A DNA stretch of 53,943 nt from Deltaproteobacteria bacterium (GTDB lineage Bacteria > Desulfobacterota > Desulfobacteria > Desulfobacterales > C00003060), in assembly GCA_019309815.1 (NCBI GenBank), contig JAFDFO010000005.1:1-53943 (forward strand), written 5' to 3'. A program made the position numbers and the translations under genes. The notes under the pieces were generated by a model that saw only the letters and a list, made by a program, of their open reading frames with translations, was not told where the DNA came from and made no database searches. Shown piece after piece: positions 2,610 through 31,839 of this stretch; within the stretch, counting starts at the first letter, position 1; every line of letters starts with the position of its first letter.

Positions 2610-2613
2610 ATAT

Positions 2614-8259: not shown

Positions 8260-8261
8260 CC

Positions 8262-9092: not shown

Positions 9093-9244
9093 GACATGTC
9101 TCCTTTCATTTGTGGGGTTGGCCCGTTCAGGCAGCACCCGCTGCAACTAATCCGCCAAACCCGTAATCCCGTCCTTTGTCATTCCGGCCACGGGCATTAA
9201 ATCCCATTTTCATCCCTGTATCACAAACAAGGCTGTGATACAAA

Positions 9245-10012: not shown

Positions 10013-10042
10013 TTCACTCTCCTTCTCAACTCTTTACCTTTG

Positions 10043-10813: not shown

Positions 10814-10858
10814 GGGCTATTTGCTCCCGGGGTTGACGGTTTCCAGAGTGCGGGCAGA

Positions 10859-11545
10859 CTACGCTTGTATCATGCCGACGATCCACATGGCATAAAAGAT
10901 GATAACCATGATCCCCCAGAAAATGGCGGCTCCGGATCTCAACCTCGCCGTTTGGCCGCCGGTCAAGCTGAGCATCAAGAAGGCTATTACAGATCCTATC
11001 CAACCGAGGAAGCCGACTTCAAGGATTAGCGTCCAAAAGACATCCGGTTCAGAACTTGCCTGCGGGGGCGAGGAGACCGCGGCAGCATCACTCAGTCGTC
11101 GAGCCTTCGAGCCCTGATCCATCAATGAGGCGATCTTTGCATCACACCTGTCGATCCAGTCTCTACCGGGGGTATAGAAACTCCTTGCCGCCAGGAATCC
11201 TCGTCTTATGGTTCGGGTAGCAATCAGGGCGAGCTGAATGTCGCCCTGTTGCTCGGCCCGGGTACATATTTCCCAGAGTCGTTGGGCCGATTTGTGCACG
11301 TAGGGATTAAAAGGCGTATACCAGTGGATGGACCTGTCGAAAAAAGTGATTGCCTTAATATGTTGGTGTTTCTTGAAGTATTCTTCTCCTTCCTGATACG
11401 CATGCATGGACACGAAGAACGCGCGTGTCCAGACCAGGGCCAACACGACAAGGATGAGGCCAATTGCAGCAGAGATCACCCTTGTGAAAGGTCTTTTCGA
11501 CAAACGGTTCCCGGGATTCTTCACGGCACTACCCATTTGTGACAT
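10859..11545 (-). CDS. Hypothetical membrane protein (N-terminal TM, soluble middle, two C-terminal TMs)
   Basis: 228-aa ORF with the SD AGGAGA upstream of the ATG at 11545. No recognisable family motif. Confidence 0.5.
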   Translation of the reverse strand: MSQMGSAVKNPGNRLSKRPFTRVISAAIGLILVVLALVWTRAFFVSMHAYQEGEEYFKKHQHIKAITFFDRSIHWYTPFNPYVHKSAQRLWEICTRAEQQGDIQLALIATRTIRRGFLAARSFYTPGRDWIDRCDAKIASLMDQGSKARRLSDAAAVSSPPQASSEPDVFWTLILEVGFLGWIGSVIAFLMLSLTGGQTARLRSGAAIFWGIMVIIFYAMWIVGMIQA

Positions 11546-12168
11546 ACTTCTCCTGATCTTGTCGCACCGTGGCTCGTAAACCTGAAGTGTGTGGTGTGAC
11601 CCCGATGTGCTGGATCGTTTCTGCCTTCAGGTGCGTCATTCTTGATATTTCCCCCAGCATAAAATCAATTTGGTACACTTTGTCAATGAGTTCTTGTCAC
11701 TCCATCCCATGAAGAATCGCACCTATAATCATCTTGATGTATTCATGAAAGATCTGTATAAGTTATCGGGGCCAATTAGGCGCTAAGTTCCTTAGTCATA
11801 AGATTCATATTTTTTATGGCAGAAAATAATCTTGGAATAACGAATACCCGCCTGCCATGCAAAGTACTTAAGTAGAGAATAATGTCTCCGGCAATGACAT
11901 TCACCTTGAAACACTACCCTGAATCTACGCAAAGGCATTGCGGGCAGGTCGAATGTCGAACAAGGAATTAAGAAGGAAAAACCTCGACATTCAGAATCCC
12001 TTGTTCATTATTCTACATTCTTGTCCGGTTCCGGTTTATCCGGGTTAGAGAGGAATTGCAAGTATGGGTCTACGGCTACCAGAAAGGGAACTGGGCGGGT
12101 GCAGGGTTCAACGAGCGGATATGGTTGACACGATAATACGGCGAGAAACACTGGTAGGTTAGTAGCCG

Positions 12169-13923
12169 ATGAACATGTTTCTCGATGATAGGGAATCAGC
12201 CGGAGACTACTCAGTATACCTCATACTCTTCTTGATAGCCCTTGCGACGCGGATCTTCTTCCTCATCTACATAGATGAACCCGTAATCTTTTTCAAATAC
12301 CCTTTCTTTGCCGAAAAATTAGCACGGGGGATTGACATTGGGGACAGGCTCGTCGACCTGAGCCCTTTTTACCTCTATTCCCTGACGTTTCTCAAGAAGG
12401 TTTTTCATCTGGACTGGAACCTTGTCAAACCAATCCAATCGTTTGTGGGCATTCTGAACTGTTTGATGGTGTACGCCTTGGGGCGCCGGGCTTTCGGGAA
12501 GGAAGCGGGGCTTTTTGCCGCCCTTCTTTTTACCTTTTATGGCAATCTGATGGTGCTGGAATCAACCCTGGAGCCGACCGTCTTTGTCCTTCTGTTCAGT
12601 ATGTTGGCGGTCTATCTCCTTCTTGAGGTCAAAGAAAATTCCGGGGTCTTGAACAAAAAATTGGGCTTTGCTGCGGCTGCCGGTTTCTTTGCAGGCCTGT
12701 CGATCATCACCAAGCCAAACTTCTTGTTGTTTTTGCCTGTAGGGGCCGGTTGGATCCTTTTCCTGGGAGACCGAGATAGTCGGATTGGCACAAGATTTCA
12801 GACGCTGGTCTTCTGCTTTGTGGCGCTTGCGGTGGTTTTGCCCGTTACGGTGAGGAACTATGTGAAGCTTCACGATTTTGTCCTTGTCACCGCTGATGCT
12901 GGTAAGGTTTTCTTCCACGGTAATGGAAAAGGGGCCACTGCTCTGGAGGGCACTGGTCTTCCCAATGAAGGGTTTATGGAGGAGACAGGGGAAGAGCCTG
13001 ACTATGCCCATGTCTTGTACCGGAAGACAGCTTCCAGGCTTACCGGAAAAGACCTGACCCCGTCTGAATCCTCAAGGTTCTGGATGGGGAGGACGCTAAG
13101 CGACATAAGGAATAATCCGGCGGGCTACGTCGTGCTTGAAGTCGAGAAACTATTTTACTTCTTCAATGACTATGAAATGCACTATATTGCGTCTGCCTAC
13201 AAAGAATATAAGGCCATCCTGGCTTTCCCTTTCGTTAGGTATGGCATAATTGCCTCGCTGGGATTCCTGGGCATGGTGCTTTCACTGGGAAGGTTTAGAG
13301 AGCTGTTTCTTGTATACGGCATTGTATTTGTCTACCTGCTTTCGGGCATGCTTTTTTTGGTTCAGTCAAGGTACCGAATGCCGGCTGTTCCCTATCTCTG
13401 TCTGTTTGCGGGATACAGCCTCTATGCTTTGAAGGAAATGGTGACAGCAAGGAGACTTAAGCAGGCGGTAGTGACGCTGATGGTTGTCGGTCTGTTTTTT
13501 GCCTTGACTCGCCTGGCATTCAGGGGTGAGATACTGCGGGTCGATCGATGGCAGCAGGCCACAAAAATCCACTACCAGATGGGCGGAGAGCCGCTCTTTA
13601 AGCGTGGACAGTATCAAGACGCCATTTTTGAGCTAAGCAAGTGCTTGGCGATAGCCCCGGACTTCAGCCCAGCGCATAATCTCATGGGAAAGAGTCATGC
13701 AATGCTTGGAGAACTCAGGGAGGCCGCGTCGAGTTTTGGCAAAGTGATAGCATTGAGCCCGCAGCTTGCGGAAGGATACAAGAATCTTGGGTACGTCCAT
13801 CTGCTTCAAGGTGACCGGGCAAAAGCGGGGAAGCTGCTTTCAAAGGCGTTGTCCATAGACCCGAACGATGATAAACTGAAACAAGAAATCTCAAAGCTCC
13901 GGATGAATAAAGATCAGCCGTAA
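12169..13923 (+). CDS. GT-C glycosyltransferase (ArnT/PMT, GT39-like) with C-terminal TPR repeats
   Basis: About 11 hydrophobic segments, then TPR-like repeats (AIAPDFSPAHNLMGKSHAMLGELREAASSFGKVIALSPQLAEGYKNLGYVHLLQGDRAKA). Confidence 0.75.
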   Translation: MNMFLDDRESAGDYSVYLILFLIALATRIFFLIYIDEPVIFFKYPFFAEKLARGIDIGDRLVDLSPFYLYSLTFLKKVFHLDWNLVKPIQSFVGILNCLMVYALGRRAFGKEAGLFAALLFTFYGNLMVLESTLEPTVFVLLFSMLAVYLLLEVKENSGVLNKKLGFAAAAGFFAGLSIITKPNFLLFLPVGAGWILFLGDRDSRIGTRFQTLVFCFVALAVVLPVTVRNYVKLHDFVLVTADAGKVFFHGNGKGATALEGTGLPNEGFMEETGEEPDYAHVLYRKTASRLTGKDLTPSESSRFWMGRTLSDIRNNPAGYVVLEVEKLFYFFNDYEMHYIASAYKEYKAILAFPFVRYGIIASLGFLGMVLSLGRFRELFLVYGIVFVYLLSGMLFLVQSRYRMPAVPYLCLFAGYSLYALKEMVTARRLKQAVVTLMVVGLFFALTRLAFRGEILRVDRWQQATKIHYQMGGEPLFKRGQYQDAIFELSKCLAIAPDFSPAHNLMGKSHAMLGELREAASSFGKVIALSPQLAEGYKNLGYVHLLQGDRAKAGKLLSKALSIDPNDDKLKQEISKLRMNKDQP

Positions 13924-13936: not shown

Positions 13937-14956
13937 ATGCATTGCATCGTTACGGGAGGAGCCGGCTTCATTGGTAGTCATTTGGTGGACCATCTACTAG
14001 ATGACGGGCATCACGTAACCGTTCTAGACAACTACACCACTGGCCGGGCTGAGACCCTATATCATGTCAGGTCGAATCCGAAACTCTCCATACAACAGGT
14101 CGACGTGGCGGAATATGAATCGATAGCCCCCCATTTTGAGGGGATAGACTGGGTTTTCCATCTTGCCGCCCTGGCCGATATTGTTCCGTCCATAGAGCAC
14201 CCCCTCCTATACTATCGTTCAAATGTAGATGGTACGGTCAACGTACTGGAGGCATCGCGTCGTTTTGAAGTCAAACGGTTCATATATGCGGCTTCATCAT
14301 CTTGTTATGGGATTCCAGATAGTTATCCAACCCCAGAGTCGGCTGATATCCGACTTCAGTATCCTTACGCTCTAACCAAATACCTTGGGGAAGAATGCGT
14401 GATGCATTGGCATCAGGTCTATAAAATTCCCGTGGTGTCTTTGCGCCTGTTCAATGTCTTTGGCCCTCGCTCAAGGACATCTGGTACGTATGGTGCTGTA
14501 TTCGGGGTTTTTCTGGCACAGAAACTGCACCAAGAGCCCTTTACCGTTGTTGGGGATGGAAGCCAAACAAGGGACTTCGTCTTCGTGACCGATGTGGTTC
14601 GGGCCTTTGTGATGGCAGCTGAAAGCGCTGCCCAATGTGAAATCCTGAACGTTGGGAGCGGGCGTACGTACAGCATCAACAAACTGGTTCAACTCTTGGG
14701 GGGTGAAGTGGTTTACGTTCCGAAGAGGCCCGGCGAACCTGACTGCACCCACGCTGATACGACCAGAGTCAGAGACTTATTGGGCTGGACTCCTAAGGTC
14801 TCCTTTGAAGAAGGCGTAGCCGTCATGCTTGAACATATCGACCACTGGCGTCAGGCACCAGTTTGGACTCCCGACAAGATCGCTGATGCCACGGCAGGGT
14901 GGTTTCAGCATCTGTCACCCCAAAGAAATGATCTAAAAAGGAGCAACCGTTCATGA
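13937..14956 (+). CDS. NAD-dependent sugar-nucleotide epimerase/dehydratase (extended SDR)
   Basis: TGGAGFIGSHLVDHLL Rossmann motif and the YALTK catalytic YxxxK, 339 aa. Confidence 0.85.
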   Translation: MHCIVTGGAGFIGSHLVDHLLDDGHHVTVLDNYTTGRAETLYHVRSNPKLSIQQVDVAEYESIAPHFEGIDWVFHLAALADIVPSIEHPLLYYRSNVDGTVNVLEASRRFEVKRFIYAASSSCYGIPDSYPTPESADIRLQYPYALTKYLGEECVMHWHQVYKIPVVSLRLFNVFGPRSRTSGTYGAVFGVFLAQKLHQEPFTVVGDGSQTRDFVFVTDVVRAFVMAAESAAQCEILNVGSGRTYSINKLVQLLGGEVVYVPKRPGEPDCTHADTTRVRDLLGWTPKVSFEEGVAVMLEHIDHWRQAPVWTPDKIADATAGWFQHLSPQRNDLKRSNRS

Positions 14957-16488
14957 ACTTGGATTTTAGCGACCCCAAGATCAAGACACTGGAAGAAGTG
15001 ACATCCCTTGTCGGTGCCTTGAAATCAGAAGGAAAGACCATCGTGATGTGTCACGGTGTCTTCGACCTCATTCATCCTGGTCATATCCGGCACTTCCAAG
15101 CCGCAAAACGGGAAGGGGATGTCCTGGTTGTCACCTTGACTCCTGACGAGTTTGTGGGAAAAGGCCCGGGGCGCCCGGTGTTCAATCAGGCATTGCGCGC
15201 GGAATTCTTGGCTTCCCTCGCTTGTGTAGACTACGTTGCGATCAATCAGTGGCCGACAGCCGTAAATACCGTAAAAATGCTCAGGCCTGACCTATATGTA
15301 AAAGGGAGCGACTATACTGATCCGGAGAAGGATCTTACGGGTAAAATCGCGGAAGAGGAAGCCGCCGTGCAATCGGTGGGCGGCAGAATACATTTCACAG
15401 ATGAAATCACCTTCAGTTCAACGAATTTGCTGAATACCTACTTCGACGTGTTTCCCAGAGGAGCCCAGGAGTTTCTCGAGGACCTGCGAAAAGTCCATGA
15501 TGCCGAGTCGGTCATCGAAAGAATTGAAGGGCTAAAGAAACTCAAGGTGCTTGTTGTTGGAGATACGATCATTGATGAGTATTACTACTGCGAACCAATG
15601 GGCAAGTCACCCAAAGAGACGATCATTTCTACACAGTACAAAAGCAAAGAGGTCTTTGCGGGTGGCATCCTGGCGGTTGCGAATCACGTAGCCGGATTTT
15701 GTAATAGTGTTCATCTTGTGACGTGTTTGGGCACAGAAAATACCCGCCAAGACGAAGTCTTGAACAGTCTGAAGAGCAATATCATTCCTAAGATATATTA
15801 TCAGGAGGACGCCCCAACGGTTGTCAAACGCCGATATGTTGAACCCTCGTTCTTGACTAAGATGTTCGGAATCTACTTCTTTAATGACAGGGGTCTCAGG
15901 GGGGAGTTTCAAAAGGAAATATGTGACTATCTGGAAGGGGTGATGGACGACTATGACCTCGTCCTGGTTTCTGATTTTGGCCACGGTCTTATTGGTCCAC
16001 CCATGATGAAGGCCCTGTGCAAAGGGGGCCATCTTCTTGCAGTGAATACTCAAACAAACAGCTCTAACTTGGGTTTCAACCTCATTACAAAATATGATCG
16101 GGCCGACTACGTCTGCATTGATGAGCCGGAGATTCGACTTGCCACACGAAACAAATTTGGTCCGCTGAAATCGTCCGTAAATACGGTGGCCGAAAAGCTT
16201 GACTGCAAAATGGTCACAACAACGAGAGGCCATCGGGGGTCCCTGACCTACGACAAGAAAGACGGTTTTTGCGAGACCCCTGTCTTTTCTACAAAGATAG
16301 TTGATAGGGTGGGGGCGGGAGACGCATATCTGTCAATATCATCTCTGTGCGTTGCAGCAGGCTTTCCTGCACAGCTTGTAGGGCTTGTTGGAAATGCCGT
16401 GGGTGCTTTGGCAGTACAGGTTGTGTGTAACCGTGACTCGATCGAACCTGTTCCCCTCTACAAATTTTTAACTACACTCCTAAAGTAG
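14953..16488 (+). CDS. Bifunctional heptose-1-phosphate nucleotidyltransferase / PfkB sugar kinase (HldE-like with reversed domain order)
   Basis: N-terminal cytidylyltransferase-like CHGVFDLIHPGHIRHF ... PDLYVKGSDY. C-terminal PfkB kinase with a GAGDAY anion hole. ATGA overlap with the upstream gene. Confidence 0.75.
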   Translation: MNLDFSDPKIKTLEEVTSLVGALKSEGKTIVMCHGVFDLIHPGHIRHFQAAKREGDVLVVTLTPDEFVGKGPGRPVFNQALRAEFLASLACVDYVAINQWPTAVNTVKMLRPDLYVKGSDYTDPEKDLTGKIAEEEAAVQSVGGRIHFTDEITFSSTNLLNTYFDVFPRGAQEFLEDLRKVHDAESVIERIEGLKKLKVLVVGDTIIDEYYYCEPMGKSPKETIISTQYKSKEVFAGGILAVANHVAGFCNSVHLVTCLGTENTRQDEVLNSLKSNIIPKIYYQEDAPTVVKRRYVEPSFLTKMFGIYFFNDRGLRGEFQKEICDYLEGVMDDYDLVLVSDFGHGLIGPPMMKALCKGGHLLAVNTQTNSSNLGFNLITKYDRADYVCIDEPEIRLATRNKFGPLKSSVNTVAEKLDCKMVTTTRGHRGSLTYDKKDGFCETPVFSTKIVDRVGAGDAYLSISSLCVAAGFPAQLVGLVGNAVGALAVQVVCNRDSIEPVPLYKFLTTLLK

Positions 16489-16510
16489 TTGAAAGGGAAA
16501 GGGAGGGTAA

Positions 16511-17092
16511 GTGAAAGAAGCAATAGCCTCATACTTGGATACCTTAGAGAAATGCCTGAGAGACATTCAGGTGACTGATGTCGAAAAGCATGCCTTTGGA
16601 GTTGTAGAAGGCGTCGAACAAGCGGCGAGGCTGATTGACGCCCGGATCTCGGCTGGGAACAAGCTCATGTTCATAGGAAATGGCGCAAGTGCTGCAATCT
16701 CAAGCCACCAGGCAACAGATTTCTGGAAAGCTGGTGGTATGCGGGCAATTGCGTTCAATGACGCCTCTCTCCTCACATGTATTAGCAATGATTTCGGTTA
16801 CAGGCATGTGTTTGAAAAACCTATTGAGATGTTTGGTGACGAGGGAGATGTCCTGGTTGCCATAAGCAGTTCCGGGCAGTCGGAGAATATCCTGCGTGGT
16901 GTGGAGGCTGGCCGAGCAAAGGGGTGTGAGATTCTTACCTTATCGGGGTTTGTGTCAGAGAATCCCTTGCGTGGAACGGGTTCCCTCAACTTCTACGTGT
17001 CCTCGAACTCGTATGGTCATGTGGAAATTGTTCACCATGCTATCTGTCACTGCATACTGGACTCCATTATGGAGAACAGGCGGAAGGGTTAG
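16511..17092 (+). CDS. gmhA: SIS-domain phosphoheptose isomerase
   Basis: 193 aa with GNGASAAISSHQATDF and ISSSGQSENIL, GTG start. Confidence 0.8.
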   Translation: MKEAIASYLDTLEKCLRDIQVTDVEKHAFGVVEGVEQAARLIDARISAGNKLMFIGNGASAAISSHQATDFWKAGGMRAIAFNDASLLTCISNDFGYRHVFEKPIEMFGDEGDVLVAISSSGQSENILRGVEAGRAKGCEILTLSGFVSENPLRGTGSLNFYVSSNSYGHVEIVHHAICHCILDSIMENRRKG

Positions 17093-18160
17093 ATGGCTGA
17101 CATTCGAATAGATGGCCACAAGTTGATGTTTCATGTGGACAGGCTCAACAAATGGCTCAAGGGAGAGAAGTTCTTCCCAATCTATGTGGAGGTAGGCCCC
17201 TCAGGCGCCTGTAACCATAGATGTATATTTTGTGCCCTTGAATATCTTGGATATGAAGCAAGGTATATCAACACCCAAATATTCAAGGAAAGACTTGAAG
17301 AGATGGCAGGCGGCGGAGTGAAAAGCCTCATGTTTGCAGGTGAGGGGGAACCTCTGCTGCACAAGGATATTGAAGAGTTGATCTGTTTTGCAAAAGGCTG
17401 CGGGATCGACGTTTCTGTTACGACGAACGGTGTCCTCATTAACAAGCGTATCAGTAAAGAGAGTCTGGAAGCATTGTCCTGGATCCGGGTCAGTTTTAAT
17501 GCTGCTACGAGGGAGAATTACGCCCGGATTCACGGAACGCAGGCAAGTGATTTTGACAGAGTGCTTGAAAATCTGGAACAGCTTGTGTCCATGAAGAGAC
17601 GCTATCAGTATAGTTGTACGATTGGCGTGCAACTACTTATGATCCCGGAGAACTACCGGGAAACCGAACAACTCGCCAACATATTGAAGGAAATCGGTGT
17701 AGATTATTTTTCGATAAAGCCTTTCTCGAAACATCCATTGAGTAGTCATTCTTTGGACGTCAATTTTGACTATGGCCAGATGCTATCGTTTCAAAAGGCC
17801 CTTGATAGGCTGTCTGGTAATGATTTCAAGATTCTGTTCCGGGATCACACAATGACGAAGTTGACGGAAAAGGAAAGAGGCTATGACTGTTGCCTGGGGC
17901 TTCCCTTCTGGGCCTATATATCTTCTGATGGCGGAGTCTGGGCGTGCAGCGCTTTTCTGGGAAAAGAGGAGTTCTTCTATGGCAGCCTCTATGAAAAGAC
18001 TTTTACTCAGATATGGGAGGGACCACAACGCGAGAAGGTTCTGGAGATGGTAGAGCACGAGTTGGATGTTTCAGAATGTCGAGAGGTGTGCAGGCTAGAT
18101 GAAATCAATAGGTACCTCTGGGAACTGAAACACCCCCATCGCCACGTAAACTTCATATGA
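17093..18160 (+). CDS. Radical SAM enzyme with a Cys-rich C-terminal (SPASM/twitch-like) region, paralogue 1
   Basis: CNHRCIFC (CX3CX2C), C-terminal cysteines CCLGLPFWAYISSDGGVWAC ... CREVC, ends HVNFI. Paralogous to 21044..22150. Confidence 0.8.
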   Translation: MADIRIDGHKLMFHVDRLNKWLKGEKFFPIYVEVGPSGACNHRCIFCALEYLGYEARYINTQIFKERLEEMAGGGVKSLMFAGEGEPLLHKDIEELICFAKGCGIDVSVTTNGVLINKRISKESLEALSWIRVSFNAATRENYARIHGTQASDFDRVLENLEQLVSMKRRYQYSCTIGVQLLMIPENYRETEQLANILKEIGVDYFSIKPFSKHPLSSHSLDVNFDYGQMLSFQKALDRLSGNDFKILFRDHTMTKLTEKERGYDCCLGLPFWAYISSDGGVWACSAFLGKEEFFYGSLYEKTFTQIWEGPQREKVLEMVEHELDVSECREVCRLDEINRYLWELKHPHRHVNFI

Positions 18161-18175
18161 GAAGAGGCAACCACA

Positions 18176-19153
18176 TTGACTGATATTTCTAGGAAGACGT
18201 TGATCCATTTATACAAGTTGATGCTCAGAATCAGACGATTTGAGGAAAAAATCGTTGACGTCTACTGCGACCAGGATATGAAAACACCGGTCCATCTGTA
18301 TCTCGGCCAAGAGGCAGTGGCGGCGGGCGTATGTGCCAACTTGCGCAGGGAGGACTATGTTTTCAGTACTCATCGAAGCCATGGGCATTACATAGCCAAG
18401 GGGGGCGACATGAAAGCCCTCATGGCGGAACTGTATGGCCGAAGAACGGGGTGTTCTCGGGGGAAGGGGGGTTCAATGCATGTGGTCGATCCTGAAGTGG
18501 GCGTCTGTGGATCCACGGCCATAGTAGGGGGCAATATCCCGCTGTCCGTGGGGGCAGCCCTGGCATCCGCCATGCAAAAGAAAAGACGCGTGGCAGTCTC
18601 CTTTTTTGGAGACGGTGCGGTGGATGAAGGGGCCTTCCACGAAAGCCTTAATTTTGCTGCTCTGAAGAAACTTCCGGTCGTCTTCGTGTGTGAAAACAAT
18701 TTTTACGCGACACATTCTCATCAGTCCAAAAGGCAACCGCATGACCATATTTATAAATTAGCCAAGTACTACCTGATGCCCGGTGTTCGAGTGAACGGCA
18801 ATGATGTCGCCAAGGTCTTCAAAGCCGCCCAGGAGGCTGTTAAGAAGGCACGAACGGGGCGCGGCCCTACCTTGATGGAATGCAGGACATTTCGTTGGAA
18901 AGGGCATGTCGGGCCGGACTGTGACATTAAACTCGGCTGCAGGAAGCAAGAGGAGCTAAATAAGTGGGTGAAAAAATGTCCTGTGAGGTGTTTTGAAAGG
19001 GAACTTCTAAAGGGAGGCACTTTGAAGAAAGCACAGCTTGACAGGATTACCCGCGGGATTGATGGCGAGGTACATGACGCTTACCTGTTTGGCAAGAAAA
19101 GCCCTCATCCAGGTGTGAATGAACTCTTGGAGGATGTGTGGAAGCTCGATTAA
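18176..19153 (+). CDS. TPP-dependent 2-oxoacid dehydrogenase E1 component, alpha subunit
   Basis: LYKLMLRIRRFEEK, YLGQEAVAAG, GKGGSMH and FFGDGAVDEGAFHESLNFAA (TPP motif), TTG start. Confidence 0.85.
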   Translation: MTDISRKTLIHLYKLMLRIRRFEEKIVDVYCDQDMKTPVHLYLGQEAVAAGVCANLRREDYVFSTHRSHGHYIAKGGDMKALMAELYGRRTGCSRGKGGSMHVVDPEVGVCGSTAIVGGNIPLSVGAALASAMQKKRRVAVSFFGDGAVDEGAFHESLNFAALKKLPVVFVCENNFYATHSHQSKRQPHDHIYKLAKYYLMPGVRVNGNDVAKVFKAAQEAVKKARTGRGPTLMECRTFRWKGHVGPDCDIKLGCRKQEELNKWVKKCPVRCFERELLKGGTLKKAQLDRITRGIDGEVHDAYLFGKKSPHPGVNELLEDVWKLD

Positions 19154-19197
19154 CCCTGGCGTTGCAGAAGCCGAAGGGTTTGAGGTGGAGATAGAAT

Positions 19198-20253
19198 ATG
19201 CCGTGGACAAAGTTACAAGCCGACGCTATCCATCGTGATGACAGTCTGCCCCGTCGCAGGGGAGACAGGCCTTTGACGTACAGAGAGGCAATTAGAGAAG
19301 CTCAGGATCAAGCCATGAATATCGATCCCCGTGTGTTCATTATGGGAGAAGGGGTAGATGACCCGGGCGGGATATTTGGAACAACCCTGAATCTGGACAA
19401 AACGTATGGACATGGCAGGGTCATGGATCTGCCCTTAGCTGAAAACGGATTTACAGGGATAGCTATCGGGGCAGCCATTGCCGGCATGAAACCGATCCTG
19501 GTTCATATGAGAATGGACTTCTTGCTACTCTCTATGGACCAGATCGTGAACCACGCATCCAAGTGGCGGTATATGTTTGGCGGAAGGCAGACGGTTCCCA
19601 TAACCATCCGATCAATTATCGGCAGGGGATGGGGGTCTGCTGCTCAGCATTCTCAGAGCCTGCATGGCCTGTTCACGCACATCCCGGGGCTAAAAGTGGT
19701 CATGCCCAGCAGCGCCTACGACGTGAAAGGTCTCCTCCTGGCTAGTATTGCAGATGAAGACCCGGTGATGTTCATAGAACATCGATGGCTTTATGATCAG
19801 GCGGAGAATGTTCCGGAAAACATGTACACCATTGGAATCGGGAAGGGGAGGGTTGTTAGAAAAGGGACCGATATGACCATTCTGGCCATATCTCACATGG
19901 TTCCGGAGGCCCTAAGGGCGGCGAAGATTCTCGAAGAAGAGCATGGGATTGGTTGTGAAATCATTGATCCCAGAACTCTCCGTCCCCTGGACGAAAAGAT
20001 CATCCTGAAATCGGTGAAGAAGACGGGTAGATTACTGATTGCGGATTATGGCTGGAATACCGGTGGCGTGGCGGCACAGATTGCCTCAATCATTGCTGAG
20101 AAGGCGTTTAACGACCTGAACGCTCCAATTCGGCGGATTTGCTTGCCGGATGCACCGACGCCAGGAGCACCAGTCTTGGAAGAAGCGTTCTATCCTGGAG
20201 CGGAAGACATTATCCGCTTGGTAAGAAGAATGTTAAAAGGACAGGACCGATGA
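19198..20253 (+). CDS. TPP-dependent 2-oxoacid dehydrogenase E1 component, beta subunit (transketolase-like)
   Basis: FIMGEGVDDPGGIFGTT, RVMDLPLAENGFTGIAIGAA, QHSQSL and a C-terminal transketolase-like domain. Confidence 0.85.
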   Translation: MPWTKLQADAIHRDDSLPRRRGDRPLTYREAIREAQDQAMNIDPRVFIMGEGVDDPGGIFGTTLNLDKTYGHGRVMDLPLAENGFTGIAIGAAIAGMKPILVHMRMDFLLLSMDQIVNHASKWRYMFGGRQTVPITIRSIIGRGWGSAAQHSQSLHGLFTHIPGLKVVMPSSAYDVKGLLLASIADEDPVMFIEHRWLYDQAENVPENMYTIGIGKGRVVRKGTDMTILAISHMVPEALRAAKILEEEHGIGCEIIDPRTLRPLDEKIILKSVKKTGRLLIADYGWNTGGVAAQIASIIAEKAFNDLNAPIRRICLPDAPTPGAPVLEEAFYPGAEDIIRLVRRMLKGQDR

Positions 20254-21023
20254 GTAATGACAAAGGCCAATTTGCTTTGAGTGTTGTCATGCCTGCCCTG
20301 AACGAGGAGAACAATGTCATATCTGCTATTGAGCGGACCCTGTCCGCCTTTGATCATCTTGGAATAAACGGTGAGATAGTCGTTGTAAATGATGGGAGTA
20401 CCGACAACACTGGTAACTTGGTTGAAAAAAGGGCCGAACAGGAAGCAAGGGTTCGGATGATTGTGCACGAGACGCCTCAAGGGATCGGGGGATCTTTCTG
20501 GGACGGGGTCAATGTGGCTGGGGGTGATGTCGTGACAATGTTCCCTGGTGACGACGAAAATGAGCCAATCGAAGCGCTCAGGTATTTCCATCTTTTTGAA
20601 AACGTGGACATTGTGGTTCCTTTCATTTCCAACAAGGGAGTGCGGTCCAAAGGGCGCGAGCGGTTGTCTTCCTTGTTCACGGCCATTGTCAACATAACGT
20701 TCCGGACAAGGCTGAACTACACAAACGGTACGGTTTTGTACCGCAGGGCAATTCTTGGCGATCTTGAACTCAGGAGCAAGGGCTTCTTCTATCAGACTGA
20801 ATTGCTCATAAAAGCAATCAAGAGAGGGTATTTGTTTGCTGAAGTGCCAAACCTCCTGAGGAAAAGGAGCTCTGGCGTCTCGAAAGCGGTTTCGTTTAAG
20901 TCTTTCTATGCAGTGGTTAAAGGATACCTTCAACTCGTGATGGATGTATATTTCAAAGGGACGGGTCTCTCCGGGCAGAAGCATATTGCGACCGAGTCTG
21001 TCACGTTTCAGAGATTAAACTAG
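20250..21023 (+). CDS. GT2 glycosyltransferase (Dpm1/GtrB-like, likely polyprenyl-phosphate sugar synthase)
   Basis: LSVVMPALNEENNV ... VVVNDGSTDNT, DDE region. Start set at ATG 20250, which forms an ATGA overlap with the E1 beta stop. Confidence 0.8.
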   Translation: MSNDKGQFALSVVMPALNEENNVISAIERTLSAFDHLGINGEIVVVNDGSTDNTGNLVEKRAEQEARVRMIVHETPQGIGGSFWDGVNVAGGDVVTMFPGDDENEPIEALRYFHLFENVDIVVPFISNKGVRSKGRERLSSLFTAIVNITFRTRLNYTNGTVLYRRAILGDLELRSKGFFYQTELLIKAIKRGYLFAEVPNLLRKRSSGVSKAVSFKSFYAVVKGYLQLVMDVYFKGTGLSGQKHIATESVTFQRLN

Positions 21024-21043
21024 GTTCGAAAACAGAGGAATCA

Positions 21044-22150
21044 TTGAAGAAAGAGCCTATCTTAGACGGGCACAAGCTCGATTGGCACGGAGACAGGGTT
21101 GAGGCATGGCTCAAAGGCGAGAGAATTGCGCCAATTACCATTGACTGCTCCTTGACCCGACGATGTACGTATCGGTGCGTGTATTGCTACGGCCAGCTTC
21201 AGGCGAATGATGAAAAGCGAATGACCCGGGATGTGATTTTCAGATTTCTTGACGATGCTGCTGAAATCGGGGTCAAGGCGATAAGCTTTGTGAGTGACGG
21301 AGAAAGTACCTGCAGCCCCCATTTGTATGACGCCATACTGCGAGGGAGGGCTAACGGACTGGACATGGCTCTTGGAACGAATGGATATCTGTTGCAGGTG
21401 GAGCGGCTGGAAGAGATCCTGCCTGCCCTCACATATTTGCGGTTTAACGTGTCAGCGGGTGAACCAAAAAGATACGCGCACATTCATGGTTGTTCAGAAA
21501 AGTGTTTTCACACTGTGTTCGATACGGTCAAGAAGTGCGTGGAGATTAAAGAGGAGAGGGACCTTCAGGTCACTATCGGTCTCCAGATGGTCTTGTTGCC
21601 TGATTTTGAGGATCAAATTCTCCCCTTGGCCAAGCTGGGAAAGGAGCTCGGTGTTGATTACTTTGTAATCAAACACTGCAGCGACGACGAAAAAGGATCG
21701 CTGGGTGTGGATTACTCTCAGTATTTTGGCATGGTGGATATTCTGAAACAGGCAGAGGGCTTCTCAGACGAGGCCTACCTTGTGAAGGCAAAATGGTCCA
21801 AGCTCATGAGTGGCGGGAAGAGGAAGTACTCCCAGTGTTATGGCCCTCCGTTCATTATGCAGTTCTCAGGCTCAGGGCTTGTTGCCCCCTGTGGCATGCT
21901 TTTCAACAATAAATACAAGCGATTTCATATTGGAAACATAGCTGATACATCGTTCAAGGAGCTGTGGCAGAGCGAGCGGTACTGGGAAGTCATCAACTTC
22001 ATTGCTTCAAAGAAATTCAACGCAAAGAAGGAGTGCGGTTCCTTATGCCTGCAGCACAAAGTCAATGAGTTCTTATGGGACTTGAAGCAAGGCGATGTCG
22101 AAGTCAAGAAACCTGAGGGCGAGACACCCATCCACATTAACTTCATTTGA
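21044..22150 (+). CDS. Radical SAM enzyme with a Cys-rich C-terminal region, paralogue 2
   Basis: CTYRCVYC motif. N-terminal DGHKLDWHGDRVEAWLKGE parallels DGHKLMFHVDRLNKWLKGE of 17093..18160. Ends HINFI. Confidence 0.8.
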   Translation: MKKEPILDGHKLDWHGDRVEAWLKGERIAPITIDCSLTRRCTYRCVYCYGQLQANDEKRMTRDVIFRFLDDAAEIGVKAISFVSDGESTCSPHLYDAILRGRANGLDMALGTNGYLLQVERLEEILPALTYLRFNVSAGEPKRYAHIHGCSEKCFHTVFDTVKKCVEIKEERDLQVTIGLQMVLLPDFEDQILPLAKLGKELGVDYFVIKHCSDDEKGSLGVDYSQYFGMVDILKQAEGFSDEAYLVKAKWSKLMSGGKRKYSQCYGPPFIMQFSGSGLVAPCGMLFNNKYKRFHIGNIADTSFKELWQSERYWEVINFIASKKFNAKKECGSLCLQHKVNEFLWDLKQGDVEVKKPEGETPIHINFI

Positions 22151-22154: not shown

Positions 22155-24029
22155 CTAAGACCGCTCAGCCACCCGATAAAGTCTATAGTTTCGAAAGCGT
22201 GCCTGAGGTGACAGTAATCCCATCAGCTTGAAAAGCTTTTCTCGATGCCTCTCACCTAAGATAGACGCAATACTCGACACGTAATCATGATTAATTAGAA
22301 TGTGGGTGATACCCTTCTCTCTTAAATGTGCCAAGGCCTCTCGTGCCGATGTGCTTGCCTTTATGGCATCCATAAAGGTATTGGCTTCGAATACTGGATC
22401 ATACACATAAGGGCGTTTGCAGTAGTACAGCCCATTCACGAGGAAAACAAACAGGACTTTGTCACGATCGGTTAGATGATGATTGATATACTCAATCGCC
22501 GTGTAGCTCGGCAGATGCGATCTTAGGAACTGCGCTTCTGATTGAATTCCCGATAGATATTTATAAGGCGCTATGCGCCTAAAGTGGTCAAGATAGAAGT
22601 ACGTATTGATTGCGAAAGTGAAAAGACAGAAGTACAGAATGCATGACCTGGTCCGAAGCCACGCCTGGGGGCTTTTGTAGATTAATAGGGCGAGGACAAT
22701 GGACAGAATCGGCAAAATCGGAAATAGGAGGCGTAGCTGTTGGATTAACATGCCCCACAGGATGAAATAGAGCAGAGAAAAAAAGAGCATGAACCTTATT
22801 TCGACAGATTTTGGCCGGACAGCCACTGATAGAATGGGAACCAGGAGAAATATTGGCCCGATAAAGCCGTCAAAATCAGGACGGGTACCACCGCCAACAA
22901 AACAGATATCCCACGGGAGTCTGAGATAATTCAAGATTCCGGGTCCGCTTCCAACAAAGGACAGAAACATTGCATACGTCTTGGCCATTTCCTGTGACCA
23001 TTCCCGGCCGCCAAAAAGGGGGTACAGGAAGGGATATGTCGGATTTCCGGTCAAGACCCAATTCTTGATGTACCATGGCGAAGCAACAACAGCCGCGATG
23101 AGAAAGACCCGCACGGCCCTAGCTCCCATTCGATTTCCTTTTGTGAAAAACAGAAGTGCTCCGAGGATAATGACCAACACCATAAGGATACCGGAGTATT
23201 TCGTTCCCATGGCCAGCCCACCAAAGACTCCCGCTAATGCGAGGAATCCTTTATGGTGGAACTCCCTCCAGTGCAGTAAGGCTATGATCATGATTAAAAC
23301 AAAAAAGGCAAGAGACAGATCGATGTATGCCCAACCTGACAGTTTGGCAACCAATGGCAGAGTATAATAGACAGCAGCAGCCAAGAGCCCTGTCGACACA
23401 GAGGATTTGGCTGCCGTCCACTGAAAAATGGCCACAAGTGTTAGAACACCAAAGGAAAAATGTATCAACTTTGCCAAAATCGGGCCTTGCAACAACATGC
23501 CCAGTGTAAAAAGCATCTCGGTCGTGAAAGGGAAATTGGTGTAAAAATTTCCCGAAACAAATCCTATGCCATGATTTTGAATGAATAATCTTGGACCAAC
23601 AAGGTGATAAATAAGGGCATCCTTAGATAGTGGAGGAGTTAAGGTGATACTCAGATTCAGAATGATGAATAGACATATAAAAAAAAGCCAAGCCCATCTA
23701 TCAATGCTGAAGCGCGGTCCAGTAACCTGCGCGATATCTTTGAACAACTTCTGCATGCCGCTCCTAAGATCTTGCCTCCTGTAACATAAAGCCACAAGTC
23801 CCAGTATTAAAACCGGATAAGCCGACCCTGCATACAATACTTGAAGTATCCCCAGAATAAAGATGAGGTAAGCAGTGGTTCCGTATCCTATGCCTGAAGC
23901 ATAGATAATGTACATGGGAGTGTTGTGCGGAGCGAGTTTAAGCCACGAGAGGACACAGAGGCCATAACCGAGAGCAGATAGGTATAACAGGAGGATTAAG
24001 GCAAACCAATATACAATGTCTGATGGCAT
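22155..24029 (-). CDS. Polytopic GT-C-type membrane glycosyltransferase (ArnT/PMT_2-like)
   Basis: 624 aa with at least 12 hydrophobic segments. First-loop SKDALIYH (acidic-x2-Y type motif) and a soluble C-terminal domain of about 150 aa. Confidence 0.6.
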   Translation of the reverse strand: MPSDIVYWFALILLLYLSALGYGLCVLSWLKLAPHNTPMYIIYASGIGYGTTAYLIFILGILQVLYAGSAYPVLILGLVALCYRRQDLRSGMQKLFKDIAQVTGPRFSIDRWAWLFFICLFIILNLSITLTPPLSKDALIYHLVGPRLFIQNHGIGFVSGNFYTNFPFTTEMLFTLGMLLQGPILAKLIHFSFGVLTLVAIFQWTAAKSSVSTGLLAAAVYYTLPLVAKLSGWAYIDLSLAFFVLIMIIALLHWREFHHKGFLALAGVFGGLAMGTKYSGILMVLVIILGALLFFTKGNRMGARAVRVFLIAAVVASPWYIKNWVLTGNPTYPFLYPLFGGREWSQEMAKTYAMFLSFVGSGPGILNYLRLPWDICFVGGGTRPDFDGFIGPIFLLVPILSVAVRPKSVEIRFMLFFSLLYFILWGMLIQQLRLLFPILPILSIVLALLIYKSPQAWLRTRSCILYFCLFTFAINTYFYLDHFRRIAPYKYLSGIQSEAQFLRSHLPSYTAIEYINHHLTDRDKVLFVFLVNGLYYCKRPYVYDPVFEANTFMDAIKASTSAREALAHLREKGITHILINHDYVSSIASILGERHREKLFKLMGLLSPQARFRNYRLYRVAERS

Positions 24030-24043
24030 ATGGTAGACCGGCT

Positions 24044-25927
24044 CTATGATGACATCCGTTTCATAATGACAATTCCAAAGCCCTCTCCTGAAAAAGGCTT
24101 TTTCCCTATTTGCACAATTTCGACATAATTTTCCTCAATCCATCGGAAAACATCGGCGGCATAATCTATACCGAAATATCTGTAGCCATATTCTACTGTT
24201 GAACGTTCTACCAGGAGTACAAAATCGGGAGGCTTTTCCTGAAGTGATTCCAGTATGTCCCCGTGAAATACGGAGAAAAATGTGGGAAGAAAAGCTGTAT
24301 AAGGACTCGCACTTTCTCTACGTGTAAGATAGTTGAACATGAGGCCTTCGGGAAAGACCGTAAAGGTCTCATCCGGTTCAACAACAACGTTTATTTTGTC
24401 TATTGCTTGCTGGATAATTTGTCCTATGTCCGAATATCGGAGATCAAAAGTCTTTATCACCTCGTGGTCGCTCTTAATCGGGTAATCAATAAGATTGTAT
24501 TGCCTTACAGAGTGAGAAAAGTAGGAATAGAGAGTAAACAGAATTAGAACAATAACAGGTATCATTCCAAATCGGGCATCTCCCGTAATTCGTTTCATTA
24601 GAGCAGGAAGTATGTGCAAAACAATAATTAATAGTATGAGAAAGCCCGGCAGGACAAGAAAAAAGCCGTAGTGCACAACTCTTACATTAAACAGCAGTCG
24701 TGCGAGCAAGACAAGGGAGAAGATTGAAAAGGATAGGGTAATAAGATTCTTCTTCAACTCAATATCGGTCAATCCAGTTTTCCGCAACTTAAGTATGATG
24801 TAGACCACAAAGCAAAGTACCACCATCGGAAGAGGGAAAAAATAGTCCAGGTAGGCTGAACTGCCACTAATAGTAGTATTGATGAAGGGGGTTGTAATCA
24901 AAAAAGCAAGGAGTGGCGGCGCGAATTTGTATTTGGTATTCTTGCTGAGTGCACTCAGGAAATGGTTCACTACCATTATGATCAAAGCGAATAATACATA
25001 GATGCCCAGCCAATACAGCATACGACCCGTATTGGCTAAGGGTTCATCCGCGCCCATGACACGCACTAACAAGGGGCTGAAAGAGTGCCCACGGTGAAAC
25101 ATCAAAAAATATGGGTTCAAGACGCAGAGGATGGCCTGTGGAAATGTGGACAGGCGTGCAAAGTAAGCCCCGAATAAAAGCAGTGGAAGAATCAAAAGAG
25201 AGGCAAATGTTATAGATCGGATGGCTATAATATTTGCCTGCGGTTTCTCGGTGCGCAGTATCCATGCCCACGTGACGACCATAGAAGCAAATAACCCCAC
25301 GAATATCTCTACCTTGGTTAACAATACCAACCCACCTACAAACCAACAAAGATAGGCATAAACAATCCTGCCCTTGCTCAGATAGAGCGATAGAAAAAAG
25401 AATGCGAGGAATGAGAGGGCTATCCCGTGTGTCGCTGCATGGGAATACGGTGTGACAAAATTGTCGTTAAGCACTGGGAAATAGCGGGGAAAGGCGAAGA
25501 GTATTATGAAGGAAAGTACAGAAAAGAAGGCACATGCTGAGTTGGATACGGTTTTGATTATCTTATAGATAAGGACGGCAATGATCAAAATTAGGACGAG
25601 GTTGAATCGGACAATTGTGTCTATGTGAATTCCAAAGATCTTAAAAAGCAGAGCATTCAGGTAGTAGGAAAAAGGGCCATAGAAGAATATATTGATGTCC
25701 TTGTACAGGATCTTGCCCTGACACAATGCCCAGGGGATATAAAGCTCACGGCCAAAGTCGATAATTGGATCACACCATTTCAGCCAGCTGAGCCAGGCCA
25801 TGGCGATGCCGGCTATTACCAGAACAAATATTCCAAAGCCTTCCAACTTTGTCGTTTTATCAACCGGGTTTGTAGTGTGCACTTTGGACTTCACTGAAGG
25901 GAGTGGGGTGCGAGAGCTTCCATGCAA
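24044..25927 (-). CDS. Polytopic membrane protein, probable GT-C glycosyltransferase
   Basis: 627 aa with many TM segments and a soluble C-terminal domain. 14-nt spacing to the downstream gene. Confidence 0.5.
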   Translation of the reverse strand: MHGSSRTPLPSVKSKVHTTNPVDKTTKLEGFGIFVLVIAGIAMAWLSWLKWCDPIIDFGRELYIPWALCQGKILYKDINIFFYGPFSYYLNALLFKIFGIHIDTIVRFNLVLILIIAVLIYKIIKTVSNSACAFFSVLSFIILFAFPRYFPVLNDNFVTPYSHAATHGIALSFLAFFFLSLYLSKGRIVYAYLCWFVGGLVLLTKVEIFVGLFASMVVTWAWILRTEKPQANIIAIRSITFASLLILPLLLFGAYFARLSTFPQAILCVLNPYFLMFHRGHSFSPLLVRVMGADEPLANTGRMLYWLGIYVLFALIIMVVNHFLSALSKNTKYKFAPPLLAFLITTPFINTTISGSSAYLDYFFPLPMVVLCFVVYIILKLRKTGLTDIELKKNLITLSFSIFSLVLLARLLFNVRVVHYGFFLVLPGFLILLIIVLHILPALMKRITGDARFGMIPVIVLILFTLYSYFSHSVRQYNLIDYPIKSDHEVIKTFDLRYSDIGQIIQQAIDKINVVVEPDETFTVFPEGLMFNYLTRRESASPYTAFLPTFFSVFHGDILESLQEKPPDFVLLVERSTVEYGYRYFGIDYAADVFRWIEENYVEIVQIGKKPFSGEGFGIVIMKRMSS

Positions 25928-30043: not shown

Positions 30044-30070
30044 CAAAATCCCCTTATTCGCACTGTGTGG

Positions 30071-31217: not shown

Positions 31218-31224
31218 ACGATCG

Positions 31225-31761: not shown

Positions 31762-31839
31762 TGGGTGCGCTACTTGAAGTGGGAGTTTGCGACAAACTGC
31801 CCTTTGGCTTAACAGCAAATTTTGGAAGAGAGTTGGCCA

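Follow-up and report, generated by a model that had tools for sequence, protein, structure and literature searches.

We analyzed a window of 53,943 nucleotides from a Deltaproteobacteria bacterium of the Desulfobacterales (assembly GCA_019309815.1, contig JAFDFO010000005.1, positions 1 to 53,943 of the forward strand), in which a + strand run of eight genes joins heptose-type activation genes to a thiamine diphosphate (ThDP)-dependent E1 alpha/beta pair and two enzymes of the radical S-adenosylmethionine (SAM) type. The first-pass annotation of this DNA had proposed that the run may make a C2-branched or chain-extended heptose, an idea that the gene context reported below supports. Open reading frame (ORF) calls and Pfam searches found all eight genes where that annotation had placed them. 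Its range of 13937-22150 was right for the eight genes, and the system also takes in a GT-C gene at 12169-13923 and accessory genes at 30690-31761. The features are listed below.

12169-13923, + strand: GT-C glycosyltransferase with C-terminal TPR repeats (Pfam PMT_2 8e-13, TPR_2 1.8e-16)
13937-14956, + strand: extended short-chain dehydrogenase/reductase (SDR) of the GalE/UDP-xylose synthase (UXS)/WbpP type (Pfam Epimerase 1e-58 / GDP_Man_Dehyd)
14953-16488, + strand: nucleotidyltransferase::PfkB-kinase fusion, NT-PfkB (Pfam CTP_transf_like at residues 33-157, PfkB at 198-490)
16511-17092, + strand: GmhA-like SIS isomerase (Pfam SIS_2)
17093-18160, + strand: radical SAM 1 (Pfam Radical_SAM and SPASM)
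18176-19153, + strand: E1 alpha, ThDP-dependent (Pfam E1_dh 4e-71)
19198-20253, + strand: E1 beta, ThDP-dependent (Pfam Transket_pyr 5e-35, Transketolase_C 3e-38)
20250-21023, + strand: short GT2 glycosyltransferase of 257 aa (Pfam Glycos_transf_2 1e-19)
21044-22150, + strand: radical SAM 2 (Pfam Radical_SAM and SPASM)
22155-24029 and 24044-25927, - strand: two convergent GT-C-like membrane glycosyltransferases (Pfam PMT_2 1.2e-5 and 4e-4)
30690-31217 and 31225-31761, + strand: two small membrane proteins (no Pfam match; tblastn homology to the Omnitrophota proteins u170/u187)

The eight ORFs were tightly packed, with operon-like spacing. Overlaps of 4 nt joined the SDR gene to the NT-PfkB gene and the E1 beta gene to the GT2 gene (ATG at 20250), the gap between the SIS and radical SAM 1 genes was 0 nt, and the remaining intergenic gaps were 15-44 nt. 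The GT-C gene at 12169-13923, whose end is 13 nt away from the start of the SDR gene, is probably the first gene of the operon. It was kept upstream of the cassette in a close relative (locus L001), and a 25%-identical homolog was located upstream of radical SAM 1 in locus L017. A promoter/terminator scan of the window found fewer promoter-like sites than in shuffled sequences and a slight excess of terminator-like sites (16 vs 10.4 ± 3.1), with a single weak site (11984-12011) upstream of the first GT-C gene. Searches of the window for Rfam families and tRNAs gave no matches, and GC content did not set the cassette apart within it.

The same eight genes in the same order were found in L001, where they were 77-84% identical and the flanking GT-C genes were kept too, in an Omnitrophota genome (47-74% identity) and on one further metagenome contig. 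In a scan of one genome per species, radical SAM 1 orthologs of 37-56% identity were present in more than 15 phyla, nearly all of them in metagenome-assembled genomes. The carriers included Omnitrophota, Nitrospirae/Nitrospirota, Elusimicrobia, Planctomycetota, Sedimentisphaerales, several Desulfobacterota, Campylobacterales, Lachnospiraceae, Beta- and Gammaproteobacteria, Magnetococcus, Fibrobacter, Rokubacteria and DPANN archaea. When 1.84 billion cluster representatives (50% clustering) were searched with a profile, at least 150 matched at E<=1e-84 and 1290 at E<=1e-30; the relatives of radical SAM 1 number in the thousands. The occurrence of orthologs in many groups, together with the synteny of the cassette, indicates that the association with heptose genes is not unique to the source genome. 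Beyond the Omnitrophota cassette, the order PfkB-SIS-SDR-E1 alpha-E1 beta was found in Chloroflexota and in Azospirillum oryzae.

Radical SAM 1 and radical SAM 2 were 27% identical over their full length (BLASTP, E=6e-52). Their paralogy had been noticed in the first-pass annotation, and the N-terminal strings that it quoted, the CX3CX2C motifs and the HVNFI and HINFI tails were all found in the translations. Comparison of 54 radical SAM 1 and 24 radical SAM 2 orthologs revealed that the N-terminal strings, CX3CX2C and the HxNFI tails are features of the families. Radical SAM 1 has an N-terminal D-x-HKL-x2-H-x6-W motif and a C-terminal H-x-NFI tail, and its seven cysteines (C40/44/47 of CX3CX2C, C267, C285, C329 and C333) were invariant in the 54 orthologs. 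Radical SAM 2 showed the same seven-cysteine layout (C41/45/48, C265, C283, C331 and C335), and its CX3CX2C cysteines did not vary among the 24 orthologs. The four C-terminal cysteines (C-X17-C ... C-X3-C) were conserved in 100% of radical SAM 1 and 96% of radical SAM 2 sequences, and they predict one auxiliary cluster of a twitch-like kind, not a seven-cysteine full SPASM domain. BtrN has a single "twitch" auxiliary cluster, which the four-cysteine site of the window enzymes resembles.

AlphaFold2 models of radical SAM 1 and radical SAM 2 had pLDDT values of 82 and 83, respectively. The top Foldseek match was DesII for both (8hzv, E 2.6e-14, TM 0.65 for radical SAM 1; E 5e-15 for radical SAM 2), and BlsE was also matched (TM 0.67/0.74 for radical SAM 2). 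Other fold matches were SPASM peptide maturases, anSME, MoaA, viperin and BtrN, and the nearest PDB sequences to radical SAM 1 were BlsE and DesII. Profile classification placed both enzymes in the Radical_SAM and SPASM families and excluded them from the DesII and BlsE equivalogs: TIGR04426 (DesII) scored 50.7 against a cut-off of 450 and TIGR04466 (BlsE) 53.6 against 400. The similarity of both enzymes to DesII and BlsE is one of fold only. Identity to DesII, BlsE and BtrN was 15-18%, and the DxHKL...W motif and HxNFI tail belong to the window family itself, while the CX3CX2C core is common to all.

Paralogs of 26-29% identity on Streptomyces and Azospirillum plasmids also lay within sugar clusters, and phage records held only distant relatives (24-26% identity). 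Two other roles were considered for the radical SAM enzymes and rejected. A hopanoid side-chain role of the HpnH/HpnJ type did not fit proteins that have no B12 domain and whose score on HpnH is about 41 bits. A role as a peptide maturase, as for SPASM enzymes acting on peptides that are made by the ribosome and modified post-translationally, did not agree with the absence of a precursor-peptide context and with neighbors that were consistently sugar genes in 56 loci. Radical SAM 2 was unusually well conserved between phyla: more than 120 clusters, among them Nitrospirae, Planctomycetes and Brocadia, had it at 74-95% identity, while its operon neighbors were only 47-65% identical over the same distance. 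One radical SAM 1 homolog, P0422, was interrupted by an intein with an HNH endonuclease.

To describe the neighborhoods of radical SAM 1, which anchors the conserved module, ORFs were called in all fetched loci and labeled by BLAST against the window proteins; the rest were clustered, and frequent clusters were searched with Pfam. The counts below refer to 56 non-redundant radical SAM 1 loci. A two-subunit ThDP enzyme, either subunit being counted, was present in 41 of them; it stood within 3 kb on the same strand in 37 and directly adjacent in 16. E1 alpha was found in 17 loci, E1 beta in 18 and a split transketolase (Transketolase_N plus a short Transket_pyr or C-terminal subunit) in 22, and E1 and transketolase never occurred together. 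The 15 loci that had no ThDP enzyme comprised seven truncated contigs and eight loci with full flanks. On a neighbor-joining tree of radical SAM 1, sequences linked to E1 were intermixed with those linked to transketolase, suggesting that the type of ThDP partner was swapped repeatedly among close relatives.

A third kind of partner was also observed. P0382 is a protein of 951 aa in which a ThDP enzyme of the acetohydroxyacid synthase (AHAS)/YerE type (TPP_enzyme_N/M/C) is fused to a radical SAM 1 homolog; it is a singleton on a 4.4-kb contig and at minimum shows adjacency in one reading frame. An enzyme of YerE/AHAS architecture was also encoded in locus L070. We argue from these three architectures at the same position that what counts is their shared chemistry, the delivery of a ThDP-bound two-carbon carbanion to a carbonyl.

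Among the other frequent neighbors of radical SAM 1, the loci contained SIS in 19 cases, NT-PfkB in 17, a cassette-type SDR in 14, radical SAM 2 in 22, GT2 in 16, GT9-family genes in 13, B12-binding radical SAM genes in 22, a 295-aa radical SAM in 13, methyltransferases in 9 and DegT aminotransferases in 10. The GT9 heptosyltransferase-family genes adjoined radical SAM 1 in their 13 loci, mostly with no SIS and kinase genes of the locus's own, as expected if the host lipopolysaccharide (LPS) pathway supplies ADP-heptose. Fusions of SIS to radical SAM 1 and of an HldC-like nucleotidyltransferase to radical SAM 1 occurred in several independent clusters, and radical SAM 1 was also fused to ThDP-enzyme and methyltransferase domains. 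In several loci, ketoreductase-type genes lay downstream of the ThDP genes, which matches the precedent of Pau7, the reduction of an acetyl branch (PMC4753412).

Related cassettes were also located on plasmids of three cultured bacteria. Plasmid pDCAR1 of Solidesulfovibrio carbinolicus DSM 3852 (L074, NZ_CP026539.1 67846-96898) carries PfkB-SIS-radical SAM 1 with a split transketolase among pseudaminic-acid genes. A plasmid of Azospirillum oryzae KACC 14407 (L078, NZ_CP054615.1 205687-222598) carries PfkB-SIS-SDR-E1 alpha-E1 beta-DegT. Plasmid pDMC1 of Solidesulfovibrio magneticus RS-1 (L079, NC_012797.1 18415-37359) carries an E1 pair, GT2 genes and a GT-C gene.

We examined whether the E1 pair resembles a dehydrogenase component. 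The ThDP motif of E1 alpha (GDG-X26-NN) was intact; the annotated product (JGI) is 310 aa long and starts 15 codons further downstream. The nearest PDB entry to E1 alpha was human pyruvate dehydrogenase (PDH) E1 alpha (4e-53), and its score on the PDH equivalog TIGR03182 was 343, under the cut-off of 394. E1 beta, which was always paired with E1 alpha in related loci, scored 345 against a cut-off of 321 on a generic NCBIfam PDH E1-beta subfamily. No E2 or E3 was found among the ORFs of at least 150 aa within the 54-kb window, nor in any E1-containing locus examined, including those reached by way of E1 in Planctomycetes, a putative Asgard bin, Chloroflexota, Azospirillum oryzae and Solidesulfovibrio magneticus. 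The absence of adjacent E2 and E3 genes claimed in the first pass thus extends to the orthologous loci examined. In contrast, plasmid-borne E1 alpha genes of Priestia, Enterococcus, Rhizobium and Brevibacillus (41-44% identity) were followed by E1 beta and E2 and, in three of them, by E3 as well, and a lipoyl protein followed the E1 of a Sphingobium plasmid.

A tree of 27 E1 alpha sequences, built by neighbor joining only, with five plasmid reference sequences and without AviB1/AviB2, separated 21 sugar-linked sequences and one Streptomyces natural-product E1 from the five E2/E3- or lipoyl-linked ones with 100/100 bootstrap support. The pair therefore did not cluster with the housekeeping dehydrogenases. 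Raw identity did not discriminate: the window E1 alpha was 41-45% identical to E2/E3-linked and 43-47% identical to distant sugar-linked sequences. The best plasmid match by identity was the E1 pair of Streptomyces griseofuscus (55.5% over 80% of the query), which adjoins a condensation-domain protein, an acyl carrier protein and a phosphopantetheinyl transferase. This context suggests that the clade is one of "E2-independent E1s of secondary and glycan metabolism" and not strictly of sugar enzymes.

The SIS and NT-PfkB genes upstream of radical SAM 1 pointed to a heptose-type sugar. The SIS protein had 15 PDB hits, 13 to phosphoheptose isomerases and 2 to the related DiaA, the best being E. 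coli GmhA (2i22, 1.6e-23). In the alignment with GmhA, catalytic His180 was kept and Glu65 was replaced by Asp, a residue at least 90% conserved across 15 cassette SIS proteins; the score on TIGR00441 (gmhA) was 95.7 against a cut-off of 209. NT-PfkB combines an N-terminal HldC-like nucleotidyltransferase (HPGH motif; HldC-type cytidylyltransferase 5x9q, 7e-15) with a C-terminal HldA-like PfkB kinase (GAGD motif; heptose-7-phosphate kinase 4e84, 3e-8). The label "HldE-like" given in the first pass needs correction for the order of the domains, which is reversed compared with E. coli HldE, and for the score on the NCBIfam HldE model (138 bits, cut-off 521).

The SDR has the motifs ASSSCYG and YxxxK, and the SDRs of other cassettes were 58-65% identical to it. 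Its best PDB match was the UDP-glucose 4-epimerase 4zrm (2.9e-52), HldD was absent among its 79 PDB hits at E<=1e-20, and both NCBIfam models that it matched stayed below cut-off (galE 177; heptose_epim, TIGR02197, 120 against 275). By these comparisons it is nearest to UDP-glucose 4-epimerases, UDP-xylose synthases and WbpP and is no HldD ortholog, and it is likely a C4 oxidase/epimerase of a nucleotide sugar. GmhB-like phosphatases stood beside SIS only in L027 and L046 (Campylobacteraceae and Lachnospiraceae loci). We conclude that the predicted substrate is a heptose-type sugar nucleotide.

For the GT2, the best PDB matches were ArnC (9bhc, 2e-9), an archaeal dolichyl-phosphate mannose synthase (5mlz) and GtrB (5ekp), at E values of 2e-9 to 1e-4; the protein of 257 aa has no C-terminal transmembrane helices. 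Its similarities suggest that it is likely a polyprenyl-phosphate sugar synthase. ORF calling recovered a GT2 in 16 loci, and in 11 of these the gene adjoined radical SAM 2. The GT-C pair at 22155-25927 on the - strand, which directly follows radical SAM 2, was 71-76% conserved in L001 and L002, and the two enzymes are candidate users of a lipid-linked sugar. The small membrane proteins at 30690-31761 matched u170/u187 (tblastn, 28-31% identity, E 5e-14 and 1e-15), a pair that directly follows radical SAM 2 in Omnitrophota cassettes. Such a pair was found with GT2 and/or radical SAM 2 in L003, L009, L010, L038 and L068, and in L021 and L054 it adjoined genes for B12-binding radical SAM proteins. 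No match to the GtrA or ArnE/F families was found in the window, in which the proteins at 30690-31761 are the only flippase candidates; a flippase or adaptor role for them is a guess.

Taken together, we propose, with a probability of roughly 60%, that the cassette activates a heptose, that radical SAM 1 and the SDR form a carbonyl on it, that the E1 pair adds two carbons, and that GT2, radical SAM 2 and the GT-C enzymes carry the product toward the cell surface. From the gene content, paralogy, synteny, interchange of ThDP partners, lack of E2/E3, fold likeness and heptose-related neighbors observed here, we infer the identity of the substrate, the order of the steps, the position of the two carbons and the roles of radical SAM 2 and GT2. 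In the first step, the SIS isomerase and the kinase and nucleotidyltransferase domains of NT-PfkB would yield a nucleotide-heptose, with the phosphatase step supplied from elsewhere or bypassed. Radical SAM 1, as a DesII/BlsE-like enzyme with one auxiliary [4Fe-4S] cluster, would then act with the GalE-like SDR to produce a sugar carbonyl (keto or aldehyde) by H-atom abstraction followed by oxidation or elimination. E1 alpha/beta would decarboxylate pyruvate and place the ThDP-bound two-carbon unit on this carbonyl, working as a carboligase and not as a dehydrogenase component; the product would be an acetyl/hydroxyethyl-branched or a chain-extended (C9) sugar. Finally, GT2 may load the sugar on polyprenyl phosphate, radical SAM 2 may carry out a second radical step, and the neighboring GT-C enzymes may transfer the sugar outside the cytoplasm. 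The coupling of radical SAM 1 to the ThDP enzyme is proposed by analogy: enzymes of the DesII and BtrN types make keto sugars, and a ThDP carboligase needs such an acceptor.

Several observations weigh against this proposal. The heptose pathway is incomplete in the window: the SDR is not HldD-like and no HldD is present, and tblastn with the GmhB-like protein of L027 found no match within the 54 kb. The SIS, kinase and nucleotidyltransferase sequences fall far below the NCBIfam heptose cut-offs, and these scores, together with the replacement of the catalytic Glu65 of GmhA by Asp, mean that the sugar could differ from glycero-manno-heptose. The fold matches of the radical SAM enzymes are moderate (TM ~0.65) and include peptide-modifying SPASM enzymes, and DesII itself is not known to have an auxiliary cluster. 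The GT2 is without membrane helices and only weakly similar to ArnC (E 2e-9). The eight full-flank loci among the 56 that have no ThDP enzyme indicate that radical SAM 1 does not strictly depend on one. Conversely, the Chloroflexota E1/heptose cluster has no radical SAM, and the radical SAM of the Azospirillum cluster is distant, unclassified and located three genes after E1 beta, so that E1 does not strictly depend on radical SAM 1 either.

A broader interpretation is possible, and we put it forward tentatively, as something rather less probable than the pathway itself. Radical SAM 1 and a ThDP carboligase, whether E1, split transketolase or YerE-type, might constitute an unrecognized and horizontally spread two-enzyme module for C-C bond formation that gives a new class of C9 or branched heptose-derived sugars under anoxic conditions in many phyla, most of them uncultured and DPANN archaea among them. 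Radical SAM 1 would make the carbonyl acceptor by a DesII-like radical oxidation or elimination, and radical SAM 2, with its 75-80% identity between phyla, would rearrange the product of GT2 by a second radical step. If radical SAM 1 eliminates the 7-phosphate, as it may, this would explain why GmhB is absent from most cassettes.

The components of the proposed pathway have partial counterparts in known systems. For AviB1/AviB2 of the avilamycin pathway, the proposed role is to attach an acetyl branch from pyruvate to a keto sugar, with ketoreduction next (PMC4753412); the first-pass annotation had cited this precedent as established, whereas the literature gives the role as "proposed". In the yersiniose pathway, YerE attaches an acetyl branch at C-4 of a nucleotide keto sugar for an LPS O-antigen (PMC4753412). 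The E1 pairs proposed for sugar branching (AviB1/AviB2 and, from paulomycin, Pau11/Pau12) and YerE are precedents for the cassette (PMC4753412, PMC4425429). Like AviB1/AviB2 and Pau11/Pau12, the window encodes a PDH-E1-like pair inside a nucleotide-sugar cluster with no E2/E3, and several related loci have ketoreductase-like genes after those for the ThDP enzyme. The antibiotic systems differ in acting on 2,6- or 3,6-dideoxyhexoses in actinomycetes, whereas the cassettes described here contain heptose-type genes, two radical SAM enzymes and envelope glycosyltransferases and occur in anaerobes and uncultured phyla. With YerE they share the proposed chemistry, and in P0382 its architecture is joined to a radical SAM 1 homolog; however, YerE is a single-chain ThDP flavoenzyme whose substrate comes from dehydratases with no radical SAM, while the window has a two-subunit E1.

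The activation genes resemble those of the ADP-L-glycero-D-manno-heptose pathway in the GmhA-like isomerase, the HldA-like kinase and the HldC-like nucleotidyltransferase, and in the GT9 and GmhB genes of related loci. They differ from it in the reversed order of the fusion, the Asp in place of Glu65, the lack of GmhB and HldD in the window and the scores below cut-off. The occurrence of a DPM1/ArnC-like GT2 and many GT-C enzymes in one island recalls three-component glycosylation (ArnC/ArnEF/ArnT; GtrB/GtrA/GtrC; CsbB/GtcA/YfhO). In contrast to those systems, the window GT2 has no membrane helices, two small membrane proteins are present in place of a recognizable GtrA or ArnE/F flippase, and the sugar would come from radical SAM and ThDP chemistry.

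Among the alternatives, the one that fares best assigns the radical SAM and ThDP enzymes to a sugar other than the heptose, or to a residue that has been transferred before and is linked to lipid or glycan, while the heptose genes supply a different residue of the same glycan. Several related loci indeed lie among pseudaminic- or nonulosonic-acid genes, DegT aminotransferases and a second nucleotidyltransferase or sulfation genes are also present, and radical SAM 2 travels with GT2 in a manner that resembles lipid-level radical chemistry, of which HpnI/HpnJ are an example. Against this, the Rosetta-stone fusions link radical SAM 1 to the SIS and HldC-like domains themselves, the minimal neighborhoods consist of radical SAM 1 and a ThDP enzyme with GT9 or with SIS, kinase and SDR and contain no other sugar pathway, and the folds are nearest to soluble nucleotide-sugar enzymes. 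We regard this explanation as improbable, with a chance of about one in seven.

Slightly less probable still is an extension of the chain before activation, in which the ThDP enzyme builds an octulose or nonulose phosphate that SIS, kinase and nucleotidyltransferase activate and the radical SAM enzymes tailor later. The lincosamide octose pathway (LmbR/LmbN/LmbP/LmbK/LmbO) provides the logic for such an order. Transketolases naturally make ketose phosphates, and the split transketolase is the commoner partner of radical SAM 1; the Asp of SIS and its score under the GmhA cut-off, the distance of the kinase/nucleotidyltransferase fusion from HldE and the lack of GmhB in the window would also agree with it, and the SIS::radical SAM 1 fusions put radical SAM 1 near sugar-phosphate steps. 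However, the product of a pyruvate-using E1 would be a 1-deoxy-ketose, on which no aldose-ketose isomerase can act, and cassettes of the E1 type still keep SIS. In addition, GT9 loci that have radical SAM 1 and a ThDP enzyme and no SIS or kinase imply a pre-made nucleotide heptose, and nucleotidyltransferase::radical SAM 1 fusions exist. The unusable 1-deoxyketose and these GT9 loci are the reasons why we disfavor extension before activation.

It is quite unlikely that the product of the E1 pair is an activated acyl or hydroxyethyl unit that serves acylation (carrier loading, or an O-/N-acyl group) instead of the formation of a C-C bond on the sugar. The Streptomyces griseofuscus pair beside carrier-protein genes would fit such a function, but the window cassette and the Omnitrophota copies contain no carrier protein, E2-like or acyltransferase gene, and carboligation is what the fusion to a YerE-type enzyme and the exchange with transketolase suggest. 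That the pair is an ordinary pyruvate, acetoin or branched-chain dehydrogenase E1 with E2/E3 encoded elsewhere is largely refuted and has a very slim chance of being correct, since the likeness of E1 alpha to PDH E1 alpha, the E1 beta score above the generic cut-off and the similar identities to both groups of E1 alphas are outweighed by gene context (sugar-gene synteny across phyla, no E2/E3 at any locus examined, replacement of the pair by split transketolase in sister loci) and by the 100/100 split of the E1 alpha tree, and E1 alpha is under the PDH equivalog cut-off.

The cassette lies in a glycan island of about 41 kb (window 12169-53479) that encodes at least nine GT-C-type membrane proteins (PMT_2, YfhO, GT87). 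Three short DPM1/ArnC-like GT2s (20250-21023, 37552-38352 and 48363-49142), four B12-binding radical SAM proteins (28625-30160, 31822-33459, 33450-34847 and 46940-48379), two methyltransferases and a YdjC deacetylase are also encoded in it. This content suggests periplasmic assembly from several lipid-linked sugars. At 45836-49142 on the - strand, a GT2, a B12-radical SAM and a YdjC deacetylase are encoded in the same order as the hopanoid trio HpnI/HpnJ/HpnK; the scores for HpnK (185 bits, cut-off 233) and HpnJ (208, cut-off 578) indicate that neither protein is a member of its family. Two genes at 25953-28612 on the - strand share 4 nt; one encodes a 789-aa membrane protein (26243-28612), the other a C-terminal YfhO fragment of 97 aa (25953-26246). 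L001 has a single 916-aa gene at this position, suggesting that the window gene may be split or frameshifted.

A divergent five-gene operon at 6994-11545 on the - strand was conserved in L001. It encodes an NTP_transferase with a left-handed beta-helix, a DapB-like reductase, a nitroreductase, an AP_endonuc_2/xylose-isomerase-like TIM barrel and a 228-aa protein of no family, and may represent another sugar or cyclitol pathway. Upstream of the island, at 1362-5262, are genes for an unusually long glyceraldehyde-3-phosphate dehydrogenase-like protein (415 aa) and a 756-aa dynamin-family GTPase. Two further observations concern the related loci. In L073 (9001-13667), a nucleotidyltransferase::radical SAM 1 fusion and a split transketolase stand amid small ORFs, a LAGLIDADG gene, MazE and a transposase, and the element may be viral or plasmid-borne. 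NUDIX hydrolase genes recurred in four unrelated cassettes (L034 15673-16092, L078 14512-15087, L079 7430-7909 and L075 16181-16681), where they may serve nucleotide-sugar editing or recycling.

Full-text literature searches found no paper on the cassette and returned only AviB1/AviB2, Pau11/Pau12 and YerE as precedents. Its parts have precedents in sugar-branching E1 pairs, radical SAM sugar enzymes, the heptose nucleotide pathway and three-component glycosylation. What appears undescribed in the searchable literature is a phylum-spanning family of twitch-type radical SAM enzymes that is tightly linked to interchangeable ThDP carboligases on a heptose-type scaffold, and likewise the paralogous second radical SAM of the cassette. 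To our knowledge, the biosynthesis of most higher-carbon and branched sugars of bacteria, such as caryophyllose, erwiniose and related LPS sugars, is unknown, and we know of ThDP-dependent sugar branching only for a few dideoxyhexoses. The cassette suggests a general oxygen-independent route, in which a radical SAM enzyme would prepare a nucleotide-heptose and a ThDP enzyme would add two carbons to it. The cultured carriers Solidesulfovibrio carbinolicus DSM 3852, Solidesulfovibrio magneticus RS-1 and Azospirillum oryzae KACC 14407 make the question testable. Given the wide spread of radical SAM 1, the product may be a common, unrecognized envelope component of uncultured anaerobes.

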